Positions 31,530-62,615 of a stretch of DNA of 64,000 nt are shown here, one piece after another (position 1 is the stretch's first letter; each line of letters opens with the position of its first letter). The position numbers were made by a program, and so were the translations under genes. Source of the stretch: Eledone cirrhosa (Eukaryota); NCBI GenBank assembly GCA_964016885.1, contig OZ024751.1:33294001-33358000 (forward strand), given 5' to 3'. The notes beneath the pieces are model-generated. The model saw nothing but the letters and a program-made list of their open reading frames with translations. It ran no database searches and was not told the DNA's origin.

Positions 31530-31535
<6 letters not shown>

Positions 31536-32643
31536 GATAAATCTACCAAGAGTTTACGGTAGTGTCCAATCCGTATGAAGAACTCAATGTATTCCGGATG
31601 TCATGGAAAGAAGAGATGTAATGAAAATCCAATTTCGGTGAAAGATAAACGGTATACAGAGTCAAGATAAAATATTAAACAAATAATGAACAAACAATTC
31701 CTTATATTAAACAAAAAAAGTTCACTATTTAACGATCGTTTCTAGGGCATATATGTGCTATAATTGGTATGCATATTTAACAGATCTATGTACAAAATTA
31801 TACAAAATTATACAAATTATCAAGATTAAATATACATACCTAACTCATATATACGCCGTCTTCAGAAATAATGAAGTATATTTATTGATAATAACAACAA
31901 TTCAAAATATCAGTTCAAAATTGACCAATGAAAACACAAAGGGTTAAAAAGCAGTTTGGTGTGTGTATATACATGTAAAACCCTACACACATTTTACAAT
32001 AATGTGTGTATAATATGTATGTGCATACTAAAAAGATGGATGCAAATAAAAAATTTTCAAGGTTAATATCTCTGTAAGCTTAATGCGCTGATAAGATACG
32101 CAATGATACTTATGTAGTCAAGCATATAAATATATTTTTTTCATACTCACACATATCAGTATAATCACACATACATGTGCGTATATATATAAATATACAC
32201 ATAACCACGAACACACAAACACACACACACCCCCCACTCACATTTATATATGTGGATATAAAATCATAAGCAAATAGAAATTAAGTCACTCACATAAACA
32301 CACTGGTACACACATTTCAAGATCAAGATACAGAAATTAGGTGGGAGGGGGGGGGAGGGGTCAGTATTAGGTTGTCAGACCAGACAGCCTAATATAAATG
32401 TATCTATAAATTATGAAAAATAAAAAAATAAAAACAATAAAATATATTACATAATATAATGTACATACGCATACAGATATACATACACATACGTACATGT
32501 ACGCGCACATAGAGATATCTACACATACATACATACACACATACCTATACTGTCATACACACACATACATTTACACGAACATACACATACACATATAAAA
32601 AGATAAAAATACGGACACACACACGCGCAACACATACACACAT

Positions 32644-32688
<45 letters not shown>

Positions 32689-32800
32689 TATACACATACA
32701 CACATAGACTCATATATATATACATACACATACATATACTTATACATAAACATATATATCCCACACTCATACCACCATGAAAACACATACAAACATCCAG

Positions 32801-32850
<50 letters not shown>

Positions 32851-33069
32851 ATACACACACGTACACATATATGCATATATACATACACATATACACACAT
32901 ACACATATATATATATATACACACACACATAAAATACAGACATGCACATATATATATATATATATATATATATACATTTCATTACCCTTATATATACACA
33001 TAGTATATATACATACACAACCTCACTTATACACATATACACATAAGTTATATTACAATAATAATAAAG

Positions 33070-33108
<39 letters not shown>

Positions 33109-33248
33109 TATACACACATATACACATATACATACATACACATACATATACATACATACATACACATACATACATACACCTAAATATAAACATATATAAA
33201 TACACACATACGAATAAAGACATATATTCACACATAGACACCTATATA

Positions 33249-33282
<34 letters not shown>

Positions 33283-33727
33283 TATCTATATACACACACA
33301 TACACATACATACACATATATATATATATACACATATATACACACGCACACACATACAGACACACATACACACTCACATATATATATATATATATATATA
33401 TATGTGTATGTGAGTGTGCGCAAATACATACATATATATACGCACACACATACAAACACACACAAACACATACATATGCATACATGCACACACACACACA
33501 TATATCACATAGATACGAAGATAAATATATAAATAGAGAGACATACAAATATATACAGAACCCATATACACATACATGCAAACACGCATATACATATATA
33601 CATATATACACACATATATATTCCTATATACAAGCATACACATACGCACACATATATACATATACCTACACATATATATACCACACATTCACATACACGT
33701 ACATATATAATACATATATATACATAC
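31530..33727 (-). repeat. 3' pseudo-LTR copy (~2.2 kb direct repeat)
   Basis: Starts tatgtagataaatctaccaagagtttacgg and matches 37691-39888 apart from a few substitutions and (TA)n length changes. Confidence 0.92.
31726..31870 (-). ncRNA. Type I hammerhead-like ribozyme motif with long stem II loop (3' pLTR)
   Basis: Minus strand reads UAUUU-CUGAAGA-c-GGCGUAUAU...(~95 nt)...AUAUAUGCC-cua-GAAA-CGAUCG-UU-AAAUA. Stem I is UAUUU/AAAUA and stem III is palindromic (AACGAUCGUU). The base of stem II is imperfect. Confidence 0.65.
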
Positions 33728-35096
33728 ATATACATACATATGTATGTACAATCATATATACACACTCAATCTTACATTCATATTTACATGCTCATATATG
33801 TATTTTTATATCTAGAAATAAATACCAAAAAAAACTATATAGACACCCATCTACCCATATATTCATACATATACACTTACAAAAACAGATGATAATAGTA
33901 TGGGGGAAAGGGGGGGGTTTGGAGAAGGGGATCAAAGTAAATATATGTTTCAAGAAACCTATAATATTTTCCATATCTTAATTCAATGTATGTTCTTACA
34001 TATTTTCAATGCTAGGAAATACGAAATCTATGCATCACAAAATAAAAAAGTATACCATTAATCATATGTCAACTAAACCAAAGATAGTCAACATATTGAT
34101 TTCCAAGGTGTAAATTAGTTAGGTTTATAATATCTGAAGCAGAATTATGAAGTCAAACAGTAGTAGATTATTAATTACATTATAACTAAATTAAAGTTAA
34201 TAATAGGGAAAAGAAACCCAAATAAAAATAAAATAAAGTATTACATCGGTAGTAGCATATAAATTATATGTAAACTAAGTTAAAAATTATATATTTATTT
34301 CAATAGTATATGTTAATTAGTATATGTTAATTAGGTATACAATACATAAAGCAGATATTGTATTTCATCAATAGCATAATATAATTATATGCAAATAAAA
34401 ATCAAAATTAATACGCATACACGTACATATACATACACATACACATACATATACATATACATACACATATATATATATATATATATACATATATATACAC
34501 ACATACATACATATATAGTCACATAAATATACATACAGATACACATACAATACACACATATACATATACATATAGATATACATATCTTTTCCAAAAAATT
34601 TGCACAGAATATATTAACTAGGTATATATCAAAAACACCTCCCATTCTATGATTACATGAAATTCTGCAATTCGTCTGTACAAGGATACTAATTTTAAGC
34701 AAATTAAAATTAAAATTAAAGTTTTAGGTTGATTAAAGCTAAAACCAAATAATAAATATATTTCCAAAATGTATATTAATTAGGTCAATAATACTAAAAA
34801 TTCTTTCTCCGTCATAGGATACATGATATTATTTTGTTATATTTTATCTGTAAAAGAATTATAATAAAAAAAATTTTATAATAAAAGGTTAAACTAAATT
34901 AAAAAATTATAATAAAAGGTTAAAATAAGTTAAAATTAATCTATAAATTAAATTACTGAATATATATTAGTAATATTTAAAGGTTTTTCAAAATTAATGA
35001 TTACATAATATTTTCTCATCTGTAATAAAATATTAATTAAATTAAATTTATAGGTTAACTAACATTTAAATTAAATTAAATTCTAGAATAATGTTA

Positions 35097-37538
35097 TTAA
35101 TTAGGTTTATAATATTTAAATGTTTTTTTTAGTTTATGATTACACGATATAATTAATTCCTGTCTTTTATTTAATAAGATATCCCTAGACTTCATTATTT
35201 CAAATAGTTCTTGGGAACATAATCTACATTCCTTTCTATTATTTTGATAAGGGGTGGCTCTTTTGAGCACACTCCAGGTCAAATCATATTTTATATTTTT
35301 ATTTTTATAACTATTGATTTTTTCTGCTAGAGATGTTGTATTAGCCAGTGCGGCATTTTTAAAGCTATGTTTGTGGGTATTATACCTTGTCTTAAAATTG
35401 TTAGAGGTAGCTCCTATATATGAGCAAATAGAATCTTTAGTTTTAACATTACATTTATAGACTATGTTGTTAACAAGACAATTCCCTTTTAATGGGCAGT
35501 TTGTTTTGTTTCTACAGTTACATCCTTTCGTTAATTCTGTATTTGAGGAGATATTATTGTTAATTTGATGTACTGGTGGTATACTTATAGTTTTCTTACA
35601 TTTATATGCATTATATGCACTTATATTTTGTTTTATGTTATTTGTTGTAGAATATGAGAATTTAACTGTAGACCTATTTAAGATTTGATGGTATTTGTGG
35701 TTTGGCGGGAAGTTTTTCTCAAGGATATAAAAAAATTTTTTAGCAATATTATCCTTAACTTGTAAATTAAAAGGAGCATTATACCAAGTAACTCGTCTAT
35801 TACGGTTTCTATGTTGTTTATTATTTTTATTATTTTTATATGTTGTATCATGATTTTTACTAGGAGGAATAATGTTAATGATTTCACCACAACTATTTTT
35901 AGTTATATTTGTAGATTTAGGTGTTTTATCTTTTTTATTAGGAGTTTTATTATTAATATTTATTATAGTCTTATGATGAGTAGTTTTTTGAGGGTTACTA
36001 TACTTTATATTAGAAGATTTAGTATTTTGGGGTATACTGTGGGTGGCATTTAGGTGTGTACCTTTCATTTGGTGTTTGTTGGTAATATTATGCTGTATGT
36101 TTTCAGTATTTTTAGTAGAAGTTATATACTCTAATCTATTTTTGTGGCCACTTCTATCTAGAGCTTCATTATAAAAGGTCGCATTTTTATCAAATACATC
36201 TTGGTTAGAAGAAAGGTTAGAAATTCTAAGTGATATATTATATGCAAGGTTTTTAAGGATAGATTTAGGGTGATTAGATTGTGAGTGTATGTAATGTAAG
36301 TTTTGGTTAGGTTTATGGTAAGGTTGGTATATACCCGTAGCTAAATCTAAAGTTATATCTAGGAAATTTACTACTTTACTTGTTTTTTCAAAAGTAATAT
36401 TAAGATTATAATAGTCCTTAAGGAAAGTTCTAATATGCTTTTTGTTTTTTTCGATTTCTGAAAGGCTAAGGTTGTTAGAAAGAAGAAGACAGTCATCACG
36501 ATATAAACCACCTTTGAGGTGGGGAAAAGAGGCATTTATGTTGAAAAGGAGAAAGAGGCCCACAAGATCAGTAATTTGGGCAGAATCGCTTGAACCCATA
36601 GTAATATCAAAAAGATTACTATAAGTGTTTCTGGTCCAGTATTCATTCTGAAATTCAATAAGTGTTTGTCTAGCATGTGTAATAATGTTAATGTCATCCG
36701 AAGTTAAATTAGATCTATTTTTAGCAAATATTAATGCTTTGTTCAGGAGTATGGGTGATATAGAAGAATAATAGTTATCTATATCAAACTGTAGGAAAGA
36801 AGCAGAAGATTTACACCTAATATTTTTAAACCAATTAATTACCTGGGAGGTGTTTTCCCAGAGTGGTAAAATAACGTATTTTCTTATTTGTGGGATGACT
36901 CTATCTAAAATTTTTTTGCTAATTATTCCAATATCTGATTTGGAGGGACATATAAGTCTAATAGAAGGATTAGAGTTAAAGTTAGATTTGTGATCTTTCA
37001 GGTTGAAGTGTGGACTTCTCAATGCCAAAGGTTCAGTTCTATCTTCAATATTTAGTTTTTTTACTATGTTGTGTGTTTTGTTGTTGATGTTGGTGAGTGA
37101 CGCATTATTAGATTTTTTATAACTTTTTCTGAGTTCTTTATATATGAACTCATTATAATGTTCAATATCCATATGATACAAGTTACCAGTTTTGTCCGAG
37201 TGGACATGGATTTTTTTAGACTTTTTTAGGTCCAATAGGGTAGAATCAAGGTCCTTTTGAAAGACGGATTTATACTTTTTAAATTTGAGATGTTTAATTA
37301 AATTAAAAAGGTCTTTCTCGAAGTCTTCAAGTAAAAAGTTGTGTGGTGGATTCTTGTAAGTGTTGAAATCATACATATATTTCCGATCTGCTTGTTTAGA
37401 TTTTCTATCAAAGTGGTAGGCTCTCCATCTAACCCTTCTGATAAAATTATTAGTTTTCTGAATCATAAGGAGTAAGAAGTCGTCCTTAGAAGGTATTGGT
37501 ATGTTTTTTAAGGAGGTTCCTAAATATTGTTTTTCCAT
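35097..37538 (-). CDS. Penelope-like retroelement polyprotein: reverse transcriptase + C-terminal GIY-YIG endonuclease (Naiad-like)
   Basis: Uninterrupted ~813-codon ORF. The first ATG is at 37538 (MEKQYLGTSLKNIPIPS); the track start at 37559 is TTG. Motifs: N-terminal SLKNIPIPS, SDKTGN (PLE DKG-type), RT QFDIDNYY, ITMGS, GLYRDD, NFLDITL, thumb YHKP..YIH..SNHP, linker CNCx5CPLxGxC, GIY-YIG-like IVYKC...YIGAT..FKTRYNTH, and CRLC..E...LLNKR.E....CNH. Confidence 0.93.
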   Translation of the reverse strand: MEKQYLGTSLKNIPIPSKDDFLLLMIQKTNNFIRRVRWRAYHFDRKSKQADRKYMYDFNTYKNPPHNFLLEDFEKDLFNLIKHLKFKKYKSVFQKDLDSTLLDLKKSKKIHVHSDKTGNLYHMDIEHYNEFIYKELRKSYKKSNNASLTNINNKTHNIVKKLNIEDRTEPLALRSPHFNLKDHKSNFNSNPSIRLICPSKSDIGIISKKILDRVIPQIRKYVILPLWENTSQVINWFKNIRCKSSASFLQFDIDNYYSSISPILLNKALIFAKNRSNLTSDDINIITHARQTLIEFQNEYWTRNTYSNLFDITMGSSDSAQITDLVGLFLLFNINASFPHLKGGLYRDDCLLLSNNLSLSEIEKNKKHIRTFLKDYYNLNITFEKTSKVVNFLDITLDLATGIYQPYHKPNQNLHYIHSQSNHPKSILKNLAYNISLRISNLSSNQDVFDKNATFYNEALDRSGHKNRLEYITSTKNTENIQHNITNKHQMKGTHLNATHSIPQNTKSSNIKYSNPQKTTHHKTIININNKTPNKKDKTPKSTNITKNSCGEIINIIPPSKNHDTTYKNNKNNKQHRNRNRRVTWYNAPFNLQVKDNIAKKFFYILEKNFPPNHKYHQILNRSTVKFSYSTTNNIKQNISAYNAYKCKKTISIPPVHQINNNISSNTELTKGCNCRNKTNCPLKGNCLVNNIVYKCNVKTKDSICSYIGATSNNFKTRYNTHKHSFKNAALANTTSLAEKINSYKNKNIKYDLTWSVLKRATPYQNNRKECRLCSQELFEIMKSRDILLNKRQELIISCNHKLKKTFKYYKPN

Positions 37539-37690
37539 TGTGATATGGATGATGGACAATTGAAAGAGCTCAACTAAATGTATATGGGTTTACAAAATCA
37601 TACATATATATATGTATATACATAAATATAAAATTAATACACACATACAGTACAAAAATACGAATATTTCCGTGAAAATAGGAGCAAAAT

Positions 37691-38804
37691 TATGTAGATA
37701 AATCTACCAAGAGTTTACGGTAGTGTCCAATCCGTATGAAGAACTCAATGTATTCCGGATATCATGGAAAGAAGAGATGTAATGAAAATCCAATTTCGGT
37801 GAAAGATAAACGGTATACAGAGTCAAGATAAAATATTAAACAAATAATGAACAAACAATTCCTTATATTAAACAAAAAAAGTTCACTATTTAACGATCGT
37901 TTCTAGGGCATATATGTGCTATAATTGGTATGCATATTTAACAGATCTATGTACAAAATTATACAAAATTATACAAATTATCAAGATTAAATATACATAC
38001 CTAACTCATATATACGCCGTCTTCAGAAATAATGAAGTATATTTATTGATAATAACAACAATTCAAAATATCAGTTCAAAATTGACCAATGAAAACACAA
38101 AGGGTTAAAAAGCAGTTTGGTGTGTGTATATACATGTAAAACCCTACACACATTTTACAATAATGTGTGTATAATATGTATGTGCATACTAAAAAGATGG
38201 ATGCAAATAAAAAATTTTCAAGGTTAATATCTCTGTAAGCTTAATGCGCTGATAAGATACGCAATGATACTTATGTAGTCAAGCATATAAATATATTTTT
38301 TTCATACTCACACATATCAGTATAATCACACATACATGTGCGTATATATATAAATATACACATAACCACGAACACACAAACACACACACACCCCCCACTC
38401 ACATTTATATATGTGGATATAAAATCATAAGCAAATAGAAATTAAGTCACTCACATAAACACACTGGTACACACATTTCAAGATCAAGATACAGAAATTA
38501 GGTGGGAGGGGGGGGGAGGGGTCAGTATTAGGTTGTCAGACCAGACAGCCTAATATAAATGTATCTATAAATTATGAAAAATAAAAAAATAAAAACAATA
38601 AAATATATTACATAATATAATGTACATACGCATACAGATATACATACACATACGTACATGTACGCGCACATAGAGATATCTACACATACATACATACACA
38701 CATACCTATACTGTCATACACACACATACATTTACACGAACATACACATACACATATAAAAAGATAAAAATACGGACACACACACGCGCAACACATACAC
38801 ACAT

Positions 38805-38849
<45 letters not shown>

Positions 38850-38963
38850 TATACACATACACACATAGACTCATATATATATACATACACATACATATAC
38901 TTATACATAAACATATATATCCCACACTCATACCACCATGAAAACACATACAAACATCCAGAT

Positions 38964-39009
<46 letters not shown>

Positions 39010-39228
39010 ATACACACACGTACACATATATGCATATATACATACACATATACACACATACACATATATATATATATACACACACACATAAAATACAGAC
39101 ATGCACATATATATATATATATATATATATATACATTTCATTACCCTTATATATACACATAGTATATATACATACACAACCTCACTTATACACATATACA
39201 CATAAGTTATATTACAATAATAATAAAG

Positions 39229-39267
<39 letters not shown>

Positions 39268-39406
39268 TATACACACATATACACATATACATACATACAC
39301 ATACATATACATACATACATACACATACATACATACACCTAAATATAAACATATATAAATACACACATACGAATAAAGACATATATTCACACATAGACAC
39401 CTATAT

Positions 39407-39443
<37 letters not shown>

Positions 39444-39888
39444 TATCTATATACACACACATACACATACATACACATATATATATATATACACATATAT
39501 ACACACGCACACACATACAGACACACATACACACTCACATATATATATATATATATATATATATGTGTATGTGAGTGTGCGCAAATACATACATATATAT
39601 ACGCACACACATACAAACACACACAAACACATACATATGCATACATGCACACACACACACATATATCACATAGATACGAAGATAAATATATAAATAGAGA
39701 GACATACAAATATATACAGAACCCATATACACATACATGCAAACACGCATATACATATATACATATATACACACATATATATTCCTATATACAAGCATAC
39801 ACATACGCACACATATATACATATACCTACACATATATATACCACACATTCACATACACGTACATATATAATACATATATATACATAC
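37691..39888 (-). repeat. 5' pseudo-LTR copy (~2.2 kb direct repeat, 5'-truncated tandem unit)
   Basis: Same sequence as 31530-33727. Similarity ends abruptly at 39888. Confidence 0.92.
37887..38031 (-). ncRNA. Type I hammerhead-like ribozyme motif with long stem II loop (5' pLTR)
   Basis: Copy of the motif at 31726-31870, ~350 nt upstream of the ORF ATG. Confidence 0.65.
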
Positions 39889-39896
39889 TATATATA

Positions 39897-39948
<52 letters not shown>

Positions 39949-40161
39949 TATTGGCAACATGACCCTCCCAAAGTATAACAACATATATATATATATATAT
40001 ATATATGCATATATATACATATATATGCATATATATATGCATATATATACATATATATGCATATATATATGCATATATATACATATATATGCATATATAT
40101 ATGCATATATATACATATATATGCATATATATACATATATATGCATATATATACATATATA

Positions 40162-40195
<34 letters not shown>

Positions 40196-40372
40196 TATAT
40201 ATATATACACATATGCATATATACACATGTGCAGATATATATACATATATATGCATACATATATATATATGCATATATATATATATATATACATGCATAT
40301 TTATGTATATATATATATATATATATATACATGCATATATGTGGGTTTGTGTGTGTGTGTATATATATATAG

Positions 40373-40414
<42 letters not shown>

Positions 40415-40927
40415 ACACACACAAACATAATCTTATCTATGTCTGTGTAACATGTTTGTGTGTGTATGTGGACTTGCTTCCGTACATAAATGTACGAACA
40501 ATGTGTGTGTGTGTGTGTGTGTGTGTCCGTATGTCTCTGTATGTGTGTATGTGTCTCTCTGTGCCTGTATGTTTGTGTGTTCAAGTAGATGTGTGTATGT
40601 GGGTGTGTGTGTAGTAGATAGGTATATTTATATAGAAAAGGTTTCTGTTACAATTACTTTCGTTTTGAAACTGGTAGTTGTACAATAGACTTCATTTCCT
40701 GAATTAGCTAATAAACTATGGAGAGATAGAGAGGGGGGGAAGAGTGAGAGAGGGGGAAAGAGAGGGGGGGAGGGGGAGCGAGAGAGAGAAAGAATGTACC
40801 GAAGATAGTGATAGATGGATATGGATATATATATATATATGTATGTATATAGATATATATATATGTATATATATACATATATATAGGAGAGAGAGAGTGC
40901 ACACCGAAGATAGTGATAGGTGGATAT

Positions 40928-40963
<36 letters not shown>

Positions 40964-41560
40964 TGAGAGAGAGGAGGAGGGCATGCACTGAAGATAGTGA
41001 TAGATGAAGAGAGAGGTAGATAGAAAGAGAAGTTGAAAGAAAGAATGCATCGGTGATAGTTATCAGTTGAGAGAGGGGGGGGGCTGAGATAGAGAAAGGA
41101 GATGAAAGAGAGTGTGGGAGACATAGAAAGAGAGAGTGAGAAAGAGTGAGAGAGAGAAAGAGAGAGAAAGGGAGAGAGAGATAGCTTATTCAAACAGTTT
41201 ATTAACGTCTTCTGAACACCATGTCCTTAAAATAAAATTAATAAATAAGGTTTTACATTAATATGAGAGTTACGATAGGTTATTACCCCAACGACACAAT
41301 GGTCCTTTGTACTCTTACCTATTTCCGGTTTTTGTGCCATTCAATATTTCGAGGAAGGATTGGGGATTATTTCTACCAAAAATAGAAGATCTAGTGAATT
41401 ACACGTGAAGATGCGTGGCTAATTATTTTTCTAGAAAATGAAGACATAAAAAGTCTTCCCTCGACTTTCAGTAGAGCTGACTCATGTACATAGACAAATA
41501 CAATAAGGAATACAGGAATATATGTATATAATAGGGAAACAAGCAGAATAGAATGTATAT

Positions 41561-41595
<35 letters not shown>

Positions 41596-41652
41596 GAAAA
41601 CAAGCAGAATGTATATTGTATGTATATATAATAGAAAACAAGCAGAATGTAT

Positions 41653-41695
<43 letters not shown>

Positions 41696-41696
41696 A

Positions 41697-42093
41697 TAAT
41701 AATATTGACAGAATTAATAACAGAACACACTCACTGTTTGGTTGGTTTTCGCTTCTGTGTCTTTTATATCGGTTAATTTAATTTATTCGGTCCTCATCGT
41801 TACCATTGACTGACCAACAGTCAAAAATACAGATACAATATAGACACAAACACATTTATATAGTCTAAAAAAGTTCTTTCGTTGCACATCTGCAACATCG
41901 TCAGTGGTGCTATTATGTTTCCTCCTGTTGTATTGTATGCCTACGCCATCTTTATTTAGTCTGTTTATTTATTTATTTATTTATTTAATTAACCGATATA
42001 AAAGACACAGAAGCGAAAACCAACCAAACGGTGAGTGTGTTCTGTTATTAATTCTGGCAATATTATTACACAAATATGACCCTCCCCAAGTAT

Positions 42094-44457: not shown

Positions 44458-44725
44458 TGTACTATGTTGTCTAATAGAACTGGTGTGATATGTAGGGGTA
44501 ATCACTGTACTATGTTGTCTAATAGAACTGGTATGATATGTCTGGGTAAGCCCTGTATTATGTTGTCTAATAGAACTGGTATGATATGTAGGGGTAATCA
44601 CTGTACTATGTTGTCTAATAGAATTGGTATGATATGTAGGGGTAAGCCCTGTACTATGTTGTCTAATAGAACTGGTATGATATGTAGGGGTAATCACTGT
44701 ACTATGTTGTCTAATAGAACTGGTA
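44458..44725. repeat. Minisatellite, 48-bp unit, ~5.5 copies
   Basis: tgtactatgttgtctaatagaactggtatgatatgtaggggtaatcac and variants. Confidence 0.93.
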
Positions 44726-46520
44726 TATATAGAGGTTTCCCTTGTACTATATAGGGAAATAATCTGACTGATATGATGCGCTATCCTTTTTTATCCTGCA
44801 CAATCTGTGCGTGCATGTGTGCGTGTGTGCTTGCATGTGTGTGCGTCCATATGTATGTGTGTGTATGTGTGTGCTGGCGTACATATGTATATGTGTGTGC
44901 TGGTGTGCATGTGTATATGTGTGGGTGCGCTATAAATTTCAGGGCCAACAGTCGGACATACGAACAGATATCTACTGTAAATTACTCTAGTTTCTGTTAA
45001 TGTTAAATATTTCTTGCTGTGTTCTTTCTAGAAATATTGCCTCTTTACTTGAATTATATACGCACCCAATAAGTAGATTTAACTATATATCTCTCTATCT
45101 AGCCATATATACGCACGCCTGTGTGTGTGTGTGCCTGTATGTGTGTATGTGTATGTATGTATGTGTGTATGAGTGTATGAGTGTGTGTATGTGTGGTTAT
45201 GGGTATGTGTGTGTATTTCTGGTTATGGGTGTATGTGTGTATTTGTGGTTATGGGTTTGTTGTGGTTATGGGTATGTGTGTGTGTATGTGTGTGTGGTTA
45301 TGGGTGTGGATAAACGTCTTTTACATGTGAATAAAAGAACCACGAATGAATAGTGTATGTTTTTAAAGCTTGAATTAGCTAGATTCTTAACCTTAACGAA
45401 AGAAAAAACGCTGAGCCTGGCAATGCAGTAAACTGGAAAAAAGGAAAAAAACTAACATTGCTTTAGTTGAGCTGGTGGTACTATAACTCTTTACCGGTTT
45501 ATGTAAAGAATGAACATCAATTACCATATCATAAATACGGTTCTTGCAATCGTAAAGATTGATCGTAATAAAGAGCTGATATAAGCAGAGAAAGAAAACT
45601 GAAACGGTATTAGAGATAATACATCTGAATGTTTACTGATAAAATTTTATTTTTCTTGTTGTATACAAAGCTATGGCTAATCCATGTTTTTCATGAATTC
45701 TTCTTCAATGCTAGACGAGATGAAAAAGATCAAAGTTCAAAAACGTACCCTTAGTTTCGTTTCGTTTAGTTTCGTTTCGGGTTTTTTTTTATTTTTTAAG
45801 AATGAGGAGAACAACTAAATCATAGAAAATCCTCTTTTCATGTAGCTCCTACTTGTATAGCACATGATTATATATAAGTGTGTGTGAGGGAGGAAGTATG
45901 TATGTGTGTGTGTATATATCTGTGTGTGTGTGTGTATGTCTCTGTGTGCGTATGTATATGTGTGTATGTGGGTGTGTGGGGGGACTGTGTGTGTGTCTGT
46001 GTGTATATGTTTCTGTGTCAGTGTGTATCTCTGTGTGTATGTGTAAGCCTATTGCGTATCTTTGTGCGTGTGTCTGCGTGAGGCTCTGTGTGTGTGTGTG
46101 TGTCTGCGTGTCTCTGGGGCTCGGTGTATGTCTGTGTCTGTATATCAGTGTGCGTATGTGTGCGTGTGTCAGTGTGCGTCTGTGTGTGTGTCAGTGTGCA
46201 TCTGTGTGTGTCAGTGTGCATCTGTGTGTGTATGTGTGTATGTATGTGTGTATGTGTGGTACAATGTCACACATTGTAGATGTATTCCCTGCTAGTCTTG
46301 GATCATTACATTCTGTGCGCCTCATTGGTGCCAGTTAAACAATTTGATTGTTGCTTTTCTCCTCTGAATTAGTGGTGGTGAATAGCACACACACACATAC
46401 ACACACATACACACATACACACACACACAGATACACACATACACACACACACACACATACACACTCACTCACACATACATGAAACACACACACACTCACA
46501 CACACACACATACCTACATA

Positions 46521-59244: not shown

Positions 59245-59415
59245 TGTTTCTACTTTAGGCACTAGGCCAGCAATCACCCAGTGCATTACTGGTACTTTAT
59301 TTTATCGACCCCGTAAGGATGAAAGGCAAAGTCAACCTCGGCGGGATTTGAACTCAGATCGTAAAGGGACGTAACTATGCTGGAAAGCATGGTGTCTGAC
59401 CCTCTACCGATACTG
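59245..59415 (-). mobile_element. tRNA-derived SINE-like repeat (octopus type)
   Basis: B-box-like gagttcaaatcccgccgaggttgactttgcctttcatcc on the minus strand; related copies occur elsewhere in the window. Confidence 0.75.
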
Positions 59416-59657: not shown

Positions 59658-59693
<36 letters not shown>

Positions 59694-59708
59694 GTTTTAA
59701 TATAGATG

Positions 59709-59759
59709 AGATTCTACAGGACTAGAACTGTTTCATTCTTTAGAAATCATCAGGAATCT
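59709..59759 (-). ncRNA. Type I hammerhead ribozyme motif (inverted copy)
   Basis: Exact reverse complement of 60350-60400. Confidence 0.78.
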
Positions 59760-60349
59760 GGGTATCAAAAAATAAATATGGTATTTATAGGTCTCTTCAT
59801 GTGGTAGGAGAGGGTAGGGAGTGGGTTGGGTAGAGGTCATTGGTTGATAGAAAAGGGAATTCATTAAAAGCTAATTCTTCAAAGCTATAGTTTATATTTA
59901 GAGTAACAAAGGCAGAAAGAATTCTATAAACAAGTTCAGAATGGGGTGCCACTCCTTATTTTTAAGTTTCTCTTAAGCTAACAATGCCTATATTTCAGGT
60001 ATCTATAAGATCATTGGGGGTCAGTCATGGTTGATGGATTTAAAGAAAAGGGAAATTCTTTAAAAGCTAATCCATCAACCATGACTGACCCCCAATGATC
60101 TTATAGACACCTGAAATATAGGCATTGTTAGCTTAAGAGAAACTTAAAAATAAGGAGTGGCACCCCATTCTGAACTTGTTTATAGAATTCTTTCTGCCTT
60201 TATTTCTCTAAATATAAACTATAGCTTTGAAGAATTAGCTTTTAATGAATTCCCTTTTCTATCAACCAATGACCTCTACCCAACCCACTCCCTACCCTCT
60301 CCTACCACATGAAAAGACCTATAAATACCATATTTATGTTTTGATACCC

Positions 60350-60400
60350 AGATTCCTGATGATTTCTAAAGAATGAAACAGTTCTAGTCCTGTAGAATCT
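60350..60400 (+). ncRNA. Type I hammerhead ribozyme motif
   Basis: AGAUUC-CUGAUGA-uUUC uaaa GAAu-GAAA-CAG uucuaguc CUG-UA-GAAUCU. All three stems are present, with a GUA cleavage triplet. Confidence 0.8.
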
Positions 60401-60483
60401 CATCTATATTAAAACTTTTATACTCTGCAATGTATTGAGTACCTTACTTACTGTGGTTACCTCCGATTCAACCCAGAATAACG

Positions 60484-62320: not shown

Positions 62321-62497
62321 TCTCTCCCTCCTCTTCTTTTGGGCCTTAATTCTGAATAGCAATATGAATTAAACGGGGTAAGATCAAAAATATAGCCATT
62401 ACACTAATGCGGCCTGACCGACCTTCCTCGTTAGAAGACTTACCCCTTGACTAGAACTGTAAAAAAGGTTCGATAAGTTTACGAAGAAATTGATCAA

Positions 62498-62615
62498 TTA
62501 TGAAGGTTGAAAGGCAAAGCTAACTTCGGCGGGATTTGAACTCTAAACCTAAAAGGATGTAACTTTATGCCGCAAAGCATACTGTCTGACTCTCTACCTT
62601 TACTGCTAACCTACC
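62498..62615 (-). mobile_element. SINE-like repeat copy (partial)
   Basis: tgaaaggcaaagctaacttcggcgggatttgaactct...aaagcatactgtctgactctctacc matches 59320-59410. Confidence 0.7.

Follow-up and report, generated by a model that had tools for sequence, protein, structure and literature searches.

The Hydra clade of Penelope-like elements (PLEs) is defined in Craig et al. 2021 (PMC8557442) by a C-terminal endonuclease, the motifs RWK, DKT, and CxCX5C, the absence of CCHH, the presence of CxxC and CxH, (TA)n targets, and hammerhead ribozymes. The same paper defines Naiad by an N-terminal endonuclease, DKA, and CCHH, and describes it as lacking a canonical hammerhead. A 64,000-nucleotide stretch of the Eledone cirrhosa genome (contig OZ024751.1, positions 33,294,001 to 33,358,000), termed the window here, contains a PLE that can be set beside these systems. 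The reading considered probable is that it is a Hydra-clade PLE with an intact open reading frame (ORF) and a 6161-bp unit, that it entered a (TA)n tract in one recent event of 8359 bp, and that it passively carries microsatellite sequence in its 3.6-kb tail. What is new is a long variant of an already known clade; carriage of simple sequence repeats (SSRs) by Penelope elements has been published before.

The element is arranged as a partial tandem, composed of the 6161-bp unit and a 2198-bp upstream pseudo-long terminal repeat (pLTR). Read along the minus strand, a 5’-truncated copy of 2198 bp is followed by the full unit, which contains a 152-bp leader, the ORF, and a 3567-bp 3’ region. The two pLTR copies are 99.7% alike. 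They differ by just two mismatches and two 2-bp indels (slips), with the offset between the copies moving from 6161 to 6159 and back to 6161. The first mismatch (G31600/A37761) lies in non-repetitive sequence, and the second (32808/38967) borders a CA/TA slip. A first-pass annotation, made from the letters alone, had described two nearly identical 2.2-kb repeats, the G/A difference, the shifting offset, an open 813-codon ORF, and a young PLE in partial tandem, and each of these is supported here. It had noted neither the 52-bp repeats at the ends nor the predicted hammerhead described below. When the unit was compared with the window by blastn, no additional copy of its non-repeat parts was found. 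The features of the locus are as follows.

31530–37690, minus strand: full-length unit of 6161 bp (5’ leader, ORF, and 3’ region), from the repeat offset; three contigs of sequencing run X3 stop at the position equivalent to 37691.
37539–37690, minus strand: 5’ leader, 152 bp, from the pLTR junction to the ATG.
35097–37538, minus strand: ORF of 813 amino acids, with a reverse transcriptase of the telomerase-like kind (RT; DKT at 115, YRDD at 346), a low-confidence spacer (476–579), and a C-terminal endonuclease.
35100–35528, minus strand: CxCX5C linker and GIY-YIG endonuclease domain, from motifs and structural alignment to I-TevI.
31530–35096, minus strand: 3’ non-coding region, 3567 bp, 39% microsatellite-like; its non-repeat parts are covered by contigs in four of four runs.
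31530–33727, minus strand: downstream pLTR copy, from the pLTR alignment.
37691–39888, minus strand: upstream pLTR, a 5’-truncated copy of the 3’ end, 2198 bp, breaking off within the microsatellite block, from the pLTR alignment.
31478–31529, no strand assigned: first of two direct repeats of 52 bp, TA-rich, at the left end; a candidate target-site duplication, identical to 39889–39940.
39889–39940, no strand assigned: right-hand partner of this candidate duplication, 52 bp, identical to 31478–31529.
31721–31875, minus strand: predicted type I hammerhead with a 10-bp stem I, a 116-nt stem II region, and a palindromic stem III, with a predicted cut after 31731, from a descriptor scan and folding.
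37882–38036, minus strand: second predicted hammerhead copy, from the descriptor scan.
32460–33760, no strand assigned: compound block of degenerate (TA)n/(CA)n sequence whose sense strand is rich in UG/UA, from a repeat scan.
34410–34585, no strand assigned: small compound microsatellite block of the 3’ region, from the repeat scan.

The 52-bp repeat has a short lead, interrupted by GC, that passes into (TA)20, and it is flush with both ends of the element. Its pattern occurs in only two places in the 64-kb window, both abutting the element. It is likely a target-site duplication, and the whole 8359 bp is therefore read as one insertion. A duplication at the DNA level or in the assembly, rather than retrotransposition, could also yield a second repeat. 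The copies are closely alike and rich in microsatellite, and PLE tandems are known to trouble assemblies. However, the repeat begins exactly at the 3’ end of the element, the layout is that of a standard PLE partial tandem, the flanking repeat fits both ends, and one substitution falls in non-repetitive sequence. Such a duplication is considered very unlikely.

Divergence between the pLTRs amounts to one clear substitution in 2198 bp, or 0.045% (95% upper bound 0.25%). For an octopus host and copies that were identical when inserted, a rate of 0.09 per 25 million years, calibrated on octopus, would date the insertion to about 0.06 million years ago, with an upper limit of 0.35 million years. 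The element is intact and was likely inserted recently. A 36-bp piece (39949–39984) lies 8 bp away from the right target repeat, within the same microsatellite; it is identical at 35 of 36 positions to 27025–27060, the 3’ tip of a family at 27 kb described below. In size it matches a PLE “tail” or a very short insertion.

The ORF (37538–35097, minus strand) runs for 813 codons without interruption. Sequence searches against Pfam, NCBIfam, and the PDB gave no match for its protein. A homologue search returned 117 proteins, the best of which is 40% identical over the full length. The structure predicted for the whole protein has a pLDDT of 80.4, and the top seven Foldseek matches are telomerase RTs (best E 2.9e-08). 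The last 143 residues, modelled alone, reach a pLDDT of 90.6. In VIA-align comparisons the best endonuclease match of this domain is I-TevI (Z 9.0, rmsd 2.3, 89 aligned), and T4 EndoII scores Z 7.4; Foldseek by itself gives a weak endonuclease match (E 0.56). The catalytic-looking motifs are complete, with YRDD at 346 and YIG at 707. An ORF with RT and GIY-YIG domains, as first annotated, is thus supported by fold (telomerase RTs, I-TevI) and not by Pfam.

A spacer of about 100 residues between the RT and the linker (residues 476–579, about 35800–36110, minus strand) is modelled with low confidence. The RT-to-linker spacer is 119 residues here versus a median of 25 in 63 measurable proteins, six of which, including this one, exceed 60 residues. 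Among the best-supported 40 of 347 variant rows from public sequencing runs, 23 are ORF variants. Synonymous changes make up 13 of the 23, against 19.5% expected (P about 1e-4), and none is a stop. This excess is taken as a sign of coding constraint.

The telomerase-related RT, the GIY-YIG endonuclease in the same ORF, and the pLTR-forming partial tandem are those of an endonuclease-bearing (EN+) PLE. The endonuclease is C-terminal, as YRDD precedes YIG. The protein contains RVRWR at 35, with R in place of the K of RWK, and DKT at 115, and has neither a DKG nor a DKA motif. The CxCX5C linker is formed by C673, C675, and C681, CxxC..E by C771, C774, and E777, and CxH by C799 and H801; the Cys, His, Glu, and Asn columns of the linker and endonuclease are invariant across 49 aligned endonuclease domains. 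From the GIY to the YIG position no conserved Cys pair (CxxC) was found in these 49 domains, so CCHH is absent. The two cysteines of this protein in that interval, C696 and C705, are separated by 8 residues, and neither is invariant. The insertion site is (TA)n, as in Hydra. The length of the unit falls outside the Hydra description of “generally short, under 3 kb”, which is descriptive rather than diagnostic.

Judged by domain order and motifs (RWR, DKT, CxCX5C, no CCHH), the element is a Hydra-clade PLE and not a Naiad. Naiad was the name given in the first-pass annotation, and it shares the (TA)n target; cephalopods do contain Naiads. That assignment is refuted by the order of the domains, and the DKT in place of DKA, the missing CCHH, and the presence of a predicted hammerhead likewise stand against it, leaving it next to no probability. 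Neptune, Nematis, and Penelope/Poseidon were ruled out on the DKG motif and the endonuclease CCHH, neither of which is found here.

The descriptor scan places a type I hammerhead in both pLTRs, with cores at 31865 and 38026 and with 116 nt separating the core halves. In the unit, the motif lies about 200 nt before the 3’ end and 3231 nt past the stop codon. Its descriptor score is 23; none of 500 shuffles of the unit reached this score (maximum 16). Folding gives a z of −5.66, and none of 200 shuffles is equally stable. Pairing of two copies through stem III is predicted at −101.8 kcal/mol, versus −87.0 kcal/mol for two monomers, and a dimeric form through stem III has been described for animal hammerheads. 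In other copies of the family, C37886T is seen in all four public runs aligned below and changes a G.U pair of stem I to A-U. The published hammerheads of Hydra elements are also placed near the 3’ end (PMC8557442). Compared with the canonical hammerhead of that clade, the core, stems I and III, and the position agree, while stem II is far longer and has extra bases at its foot. An Rfam scan of 22000–42000 listed 150 of 268 matches, all of them microRNA models on microsatellite and below gathering scores, with no hammerhead among those listed.

The events at this locus may be pictured as follows. The endonuclease would nick a (TA)n tract, and the RT would start at the 3’ end of an RNA longer than one unit and copy one unit plus 2198 nt of the next. 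The RT would stop in the TA/CA block, where pairing with the target is possible, and repair would duplicate 52 bp of target. Each long insertion would then include a copy of whatever lies from the stop codon to the hammerhead. Two hammerheads 6161 nt apart could free a unit-length RNA, probably dimeric through the palindromic stem III, if the predicted cleavage takes place. Insertion by the Anolis Poseidon element did not need hammerhead cleavage in vitro (PMC11167929).

Microsatellite content was expressed as purine-pyrimidine alternation. By this measure 1154 of 2198 bp of the pLTR (52%) and 1382 of 3567 bp of the 3’ region (39%) are microsatellite-like, compared with 29% of the window. The earlier estimate that about half of the pLTR is microsatellite is accurate, and its description of the 3’ region as largely microsatellite is not. 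Perfect dinucleotide runs of at least 12 nt occupy 11% of both the pLTR and the window, and 7% of the 3’ region. Within the large block, such runs account for 17%; the block is degenerate rather than a pure run, which suggests that it is old. The duplication of this block is not a chance likeness, because 1206 of its 1238 31-mers recur in the second copy versus 73 of 1238 elsewhere in the window.

As first annotated, the microsatellite lies within the copied unit. Stop codon and 3’-terminal hammerhead lie on either side of the block, which is present twice in one insertion, between matching target-site repeats. Since it is inside the copied unit and has been copied twice, long insertions probably bring it along. 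Such carriage is likely genuine and passive, and it has a precedent: recently moved Penelope copies in the shrimp Litopenaeus vannamei carry SSRs (Yuan et al. 2021, PMC7878876). The further claim, that the element is a dispersal vehicle that creates its own targets, is overstated. Thirteen (TA) runs of at least 20 nt occur in the 8359-bp insertion, or 1.56 per kb versus 1.46 per kb outside, so target density in the element is no higher than in the host. Because the microsatellite density of the tail equals the host background, the tail probably grew through uptake of host-like DNA or through slippage.

Family copies were sought in public sequencing runs. Of 16 listed runs, 12 contain part of 33760–37690, and four of these (two studies, three organism labels) were aligned over 33560–38800 with the repeats at 33560–33754 and 34386–34590 skipped. 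The four runs gave 4875, 555, 536, and 352 aligned contigs, which cover 29, 29, 29, and 28 of 30 bins; the uncovered first bin is skipped repeat. The non-repeat 3’ region is covered in all four, for example at 33767–34171 (X5) and 34594–34869 (X6). X1, X3, and X5 share a variant at 38767, some 140 bp inside the large block. In X3, three contigs break off at 37691 in TA-rich loose ends. A joint in X1 connects 36696 to 38145 on opposite strands and resembles an inverted pLTR. None of the 10 listed joints bypasses the microsatellite block, which is not counted as evidence, as repeats were skipped and two X6 joints dropped.

Since contigs from three organism labels cover the non-repeat 3’ region and the first 140 bp or so of the block, both the long tail and the beginning of the block are, on this coverage, family traits. 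The tail could be a family trait even if slippage, in this copy or in the donor it came from, produced most of the 1.3-kb block; other copies would then have a far shorter tract, and little microsatellite would be spread. The host background is as TA-rich as the element, the two pLTR copies already differ by slips, and loose ends of X5 and X6 at 38752–38756 continue into other CA/TA-rich letters. Against this stand the degenerate state of the block and the sharing of its first 140 bp in three of the four runs. Slippage on this scale is regarded as unlikely.

Coverage also bears on the origin of the tail. The bins at 37585–38109, which contain the hammerhead-bearing 3’ end, are about tenfold deeper than their neighbours in both runs of one organism (organism A), with 190,000–300,000 in X1 versus 11,000 in the next bin; contig depth here is not copy number. 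Three variants at 37789–37793 are present in nearly all of this depth. The deep 3’ end hints at a possible short non-autonomous derivative. It could also point to a chimera, in which a Hydra ORF of normal size reads through host DNA and takes over the 3’ end of a separate and very abundant short hammerhead element. Such an origin would agree with the absence of any hammerhead found within 300 nt of the stop codon, the usual position in relatives, but the rise in depth is clear in organism A only, and a short family derived from the pLTR, a direction published for retrozymes, explains it equally well. A chimeric origin is possible but doubtful, and it is compatible with a Hydra-clade insertion that passively carries microsatellite.

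A broader feedback loop can also be drawn from these data, in which a lineage of long Hydra elements, whose hammerhead has a 116-nt stem II, and a hyperabundant hammerhead-only derivative of about 400 bp depend on the same enzyme and account for a real share of the host microsatellite load. Each insertion would double about 50 bp of (TA)n target and bring a dozen new TA tracts. Both the loop and this accounting are held to be improbable.

Several points weigh against the reading as one recent Hydra-clade insertion with a carried microsatellite tail. The candidate target-site duplication is itself microsatellite, and its match may be due to chance. The foot of stem II has extra nucleotides, one on the 5’ side and two or three on the 3’ side, and this copy of the hammerhead may therefore not cut; covariation was not observed for the long stem II. 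No listed contig spans the 1.3-kb block, and the aligned stretch ended at the block edges. For several differences, every contig that covers the position carries the variant, which may mean that the runs represent sister subfamilies and not this very one.

Other PLE-like pieces occur in the window. A broken second Hydra-type ORF (24796–25669, minus strand) is 46% identical to the main protein across the endonuclease, and this paralogous fragment has a weak GIY-YIG match in Pfam (E 0.0074). No hammerhead was found in the 1.7 kb downstream of it. A perfect 195-bp inverted repeat (26522–26716 and 26866–27060) with TA-rich microsatellite flanks contains a short, canonical-looking hammerhead (core 26720, minus strand) and may represent the inverted pLTR layout of another PLE family. 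A third putative PLE-like remnant is an inverted repeat adjoining (TA)n (59686–60034 and 60075–60422; identity 342 of 348). Both arms contain a hammerhead-like motif (cores 59753, minus, and 60356, plus), the fold of which is no better than that of shuffles. Two degenerate copies of a short dispersed repeat, presumably an octopus SINE, lie at about 59280–59400 and 62490–62600; the former suggests that the host is probably an octopod. Homogeneous minisatellite arrays are present at 3571–4285 (43 bp), 4375–5050 (27 bp), 17305–19414 (36 bp; 58.6 copies, 98% match), and 44458–44730 (48 bp). A scaffold gap of about 200 N (27806–28005) is 3.5 kb away from the Hydra-clade element.

The locus offers an intact young element for a clade without biochemistry in the literature found, together with a likely target duplication and an out-of-range predicted hammerhead. 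Hydra models can exceed the catalogued length 2.5 times, and standard short-stem descriptors and Rfam miss their putative ribozyme. The fraction of a microsatellite-rich animal genome delivered by retroelements becomes countable. What the present data contain is ordinary, namely passive carriage at background density.

Among literature titles and abstract openings, neither a long Hydra element nor a long-stem PLE hammerhead was found, with most subscription papers, Repbase, and Dfam lying outside this search. In O. vulgaris, recently active Penelope insertions average about 5.5 kb (1,795,539 bp/329), so long models may already be in the repeat library of that species. The baseline for comparison is 77 related metagenome loci, 74 with an endonuclease match and three without. 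A hammerhead was found in 39 of the 74; the other 35, negative under the descriptor used, are short contigs or have variant cores. Long forms are under-sampled in this baseline, because short-read contigs break at microsatellites. A direct repeat is present in 36 of the 77 loci, and 35 of the 36 offsets are 2343–2628 bp. Three metagenome contigs (L011, L021, and L056) contain two endonuclease copies in tandem, with units of 2427, 2362, and 2405 bp.

The closest described elements are those of the Hydra clade, such as Hydra-1_Obim (PMC8557442), which share the single ORF with RT then GIY-YIG, RW(K/R), DKT, CxCX5C, the lack of CCHH, CxxC/CxH, the (TA)n target, and, as predicted here, the 3’ type I hammerhead. 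The N-terminal parts are similar by eye. The unit here is 6161 bp, 2.5 times longer than known relatives and with a 3.6-kb tail, versus 2084–2729 bp in the published models (14 complete among 27 listed) and 2343–2628 bp in the related loci. The distance from stop to hammerhead is 3231 nt versus 47–304 nt, and the stem II region is 116 nt versus 10–25 nt in 38 of 39 relatives; the exception (L046) is a weak match with a 135-nt stem II, retained in the count. Naiad has the (TA)n preference and partial tandems in common with this element and differs in its N-terminal endonuclease, DKA, CCHH, IFD, and lack of a canonical hammerhead. The Penelope copies of Litopenaeus vannamei (PMC7878876) are also young, with terminal repeats, an RT gene, and internal SSRs that move along, in another host. 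Non-LTR retrozymes (PMC7229834; bioRxiv 10.64898/2026.07.22.740005) are short type I hammerhead repeats akin to PLE pLTRs. The deep 3’ end of about 400 bp in organism A may be one; it is known here from the depth step and its variants, a whole short copy not having been seen. The Anolis Poseidon element PAc, from a different clade, serves as a mechanistic model: according to PMC11167929, it nicks AT-rich DNA, has a protein-assisted hammerhead that overlaps the start codon, and uses uncut RNA as the main template in vitro. A tail of 30–40 bp is not seen at the 3’ end of the insertion described here.

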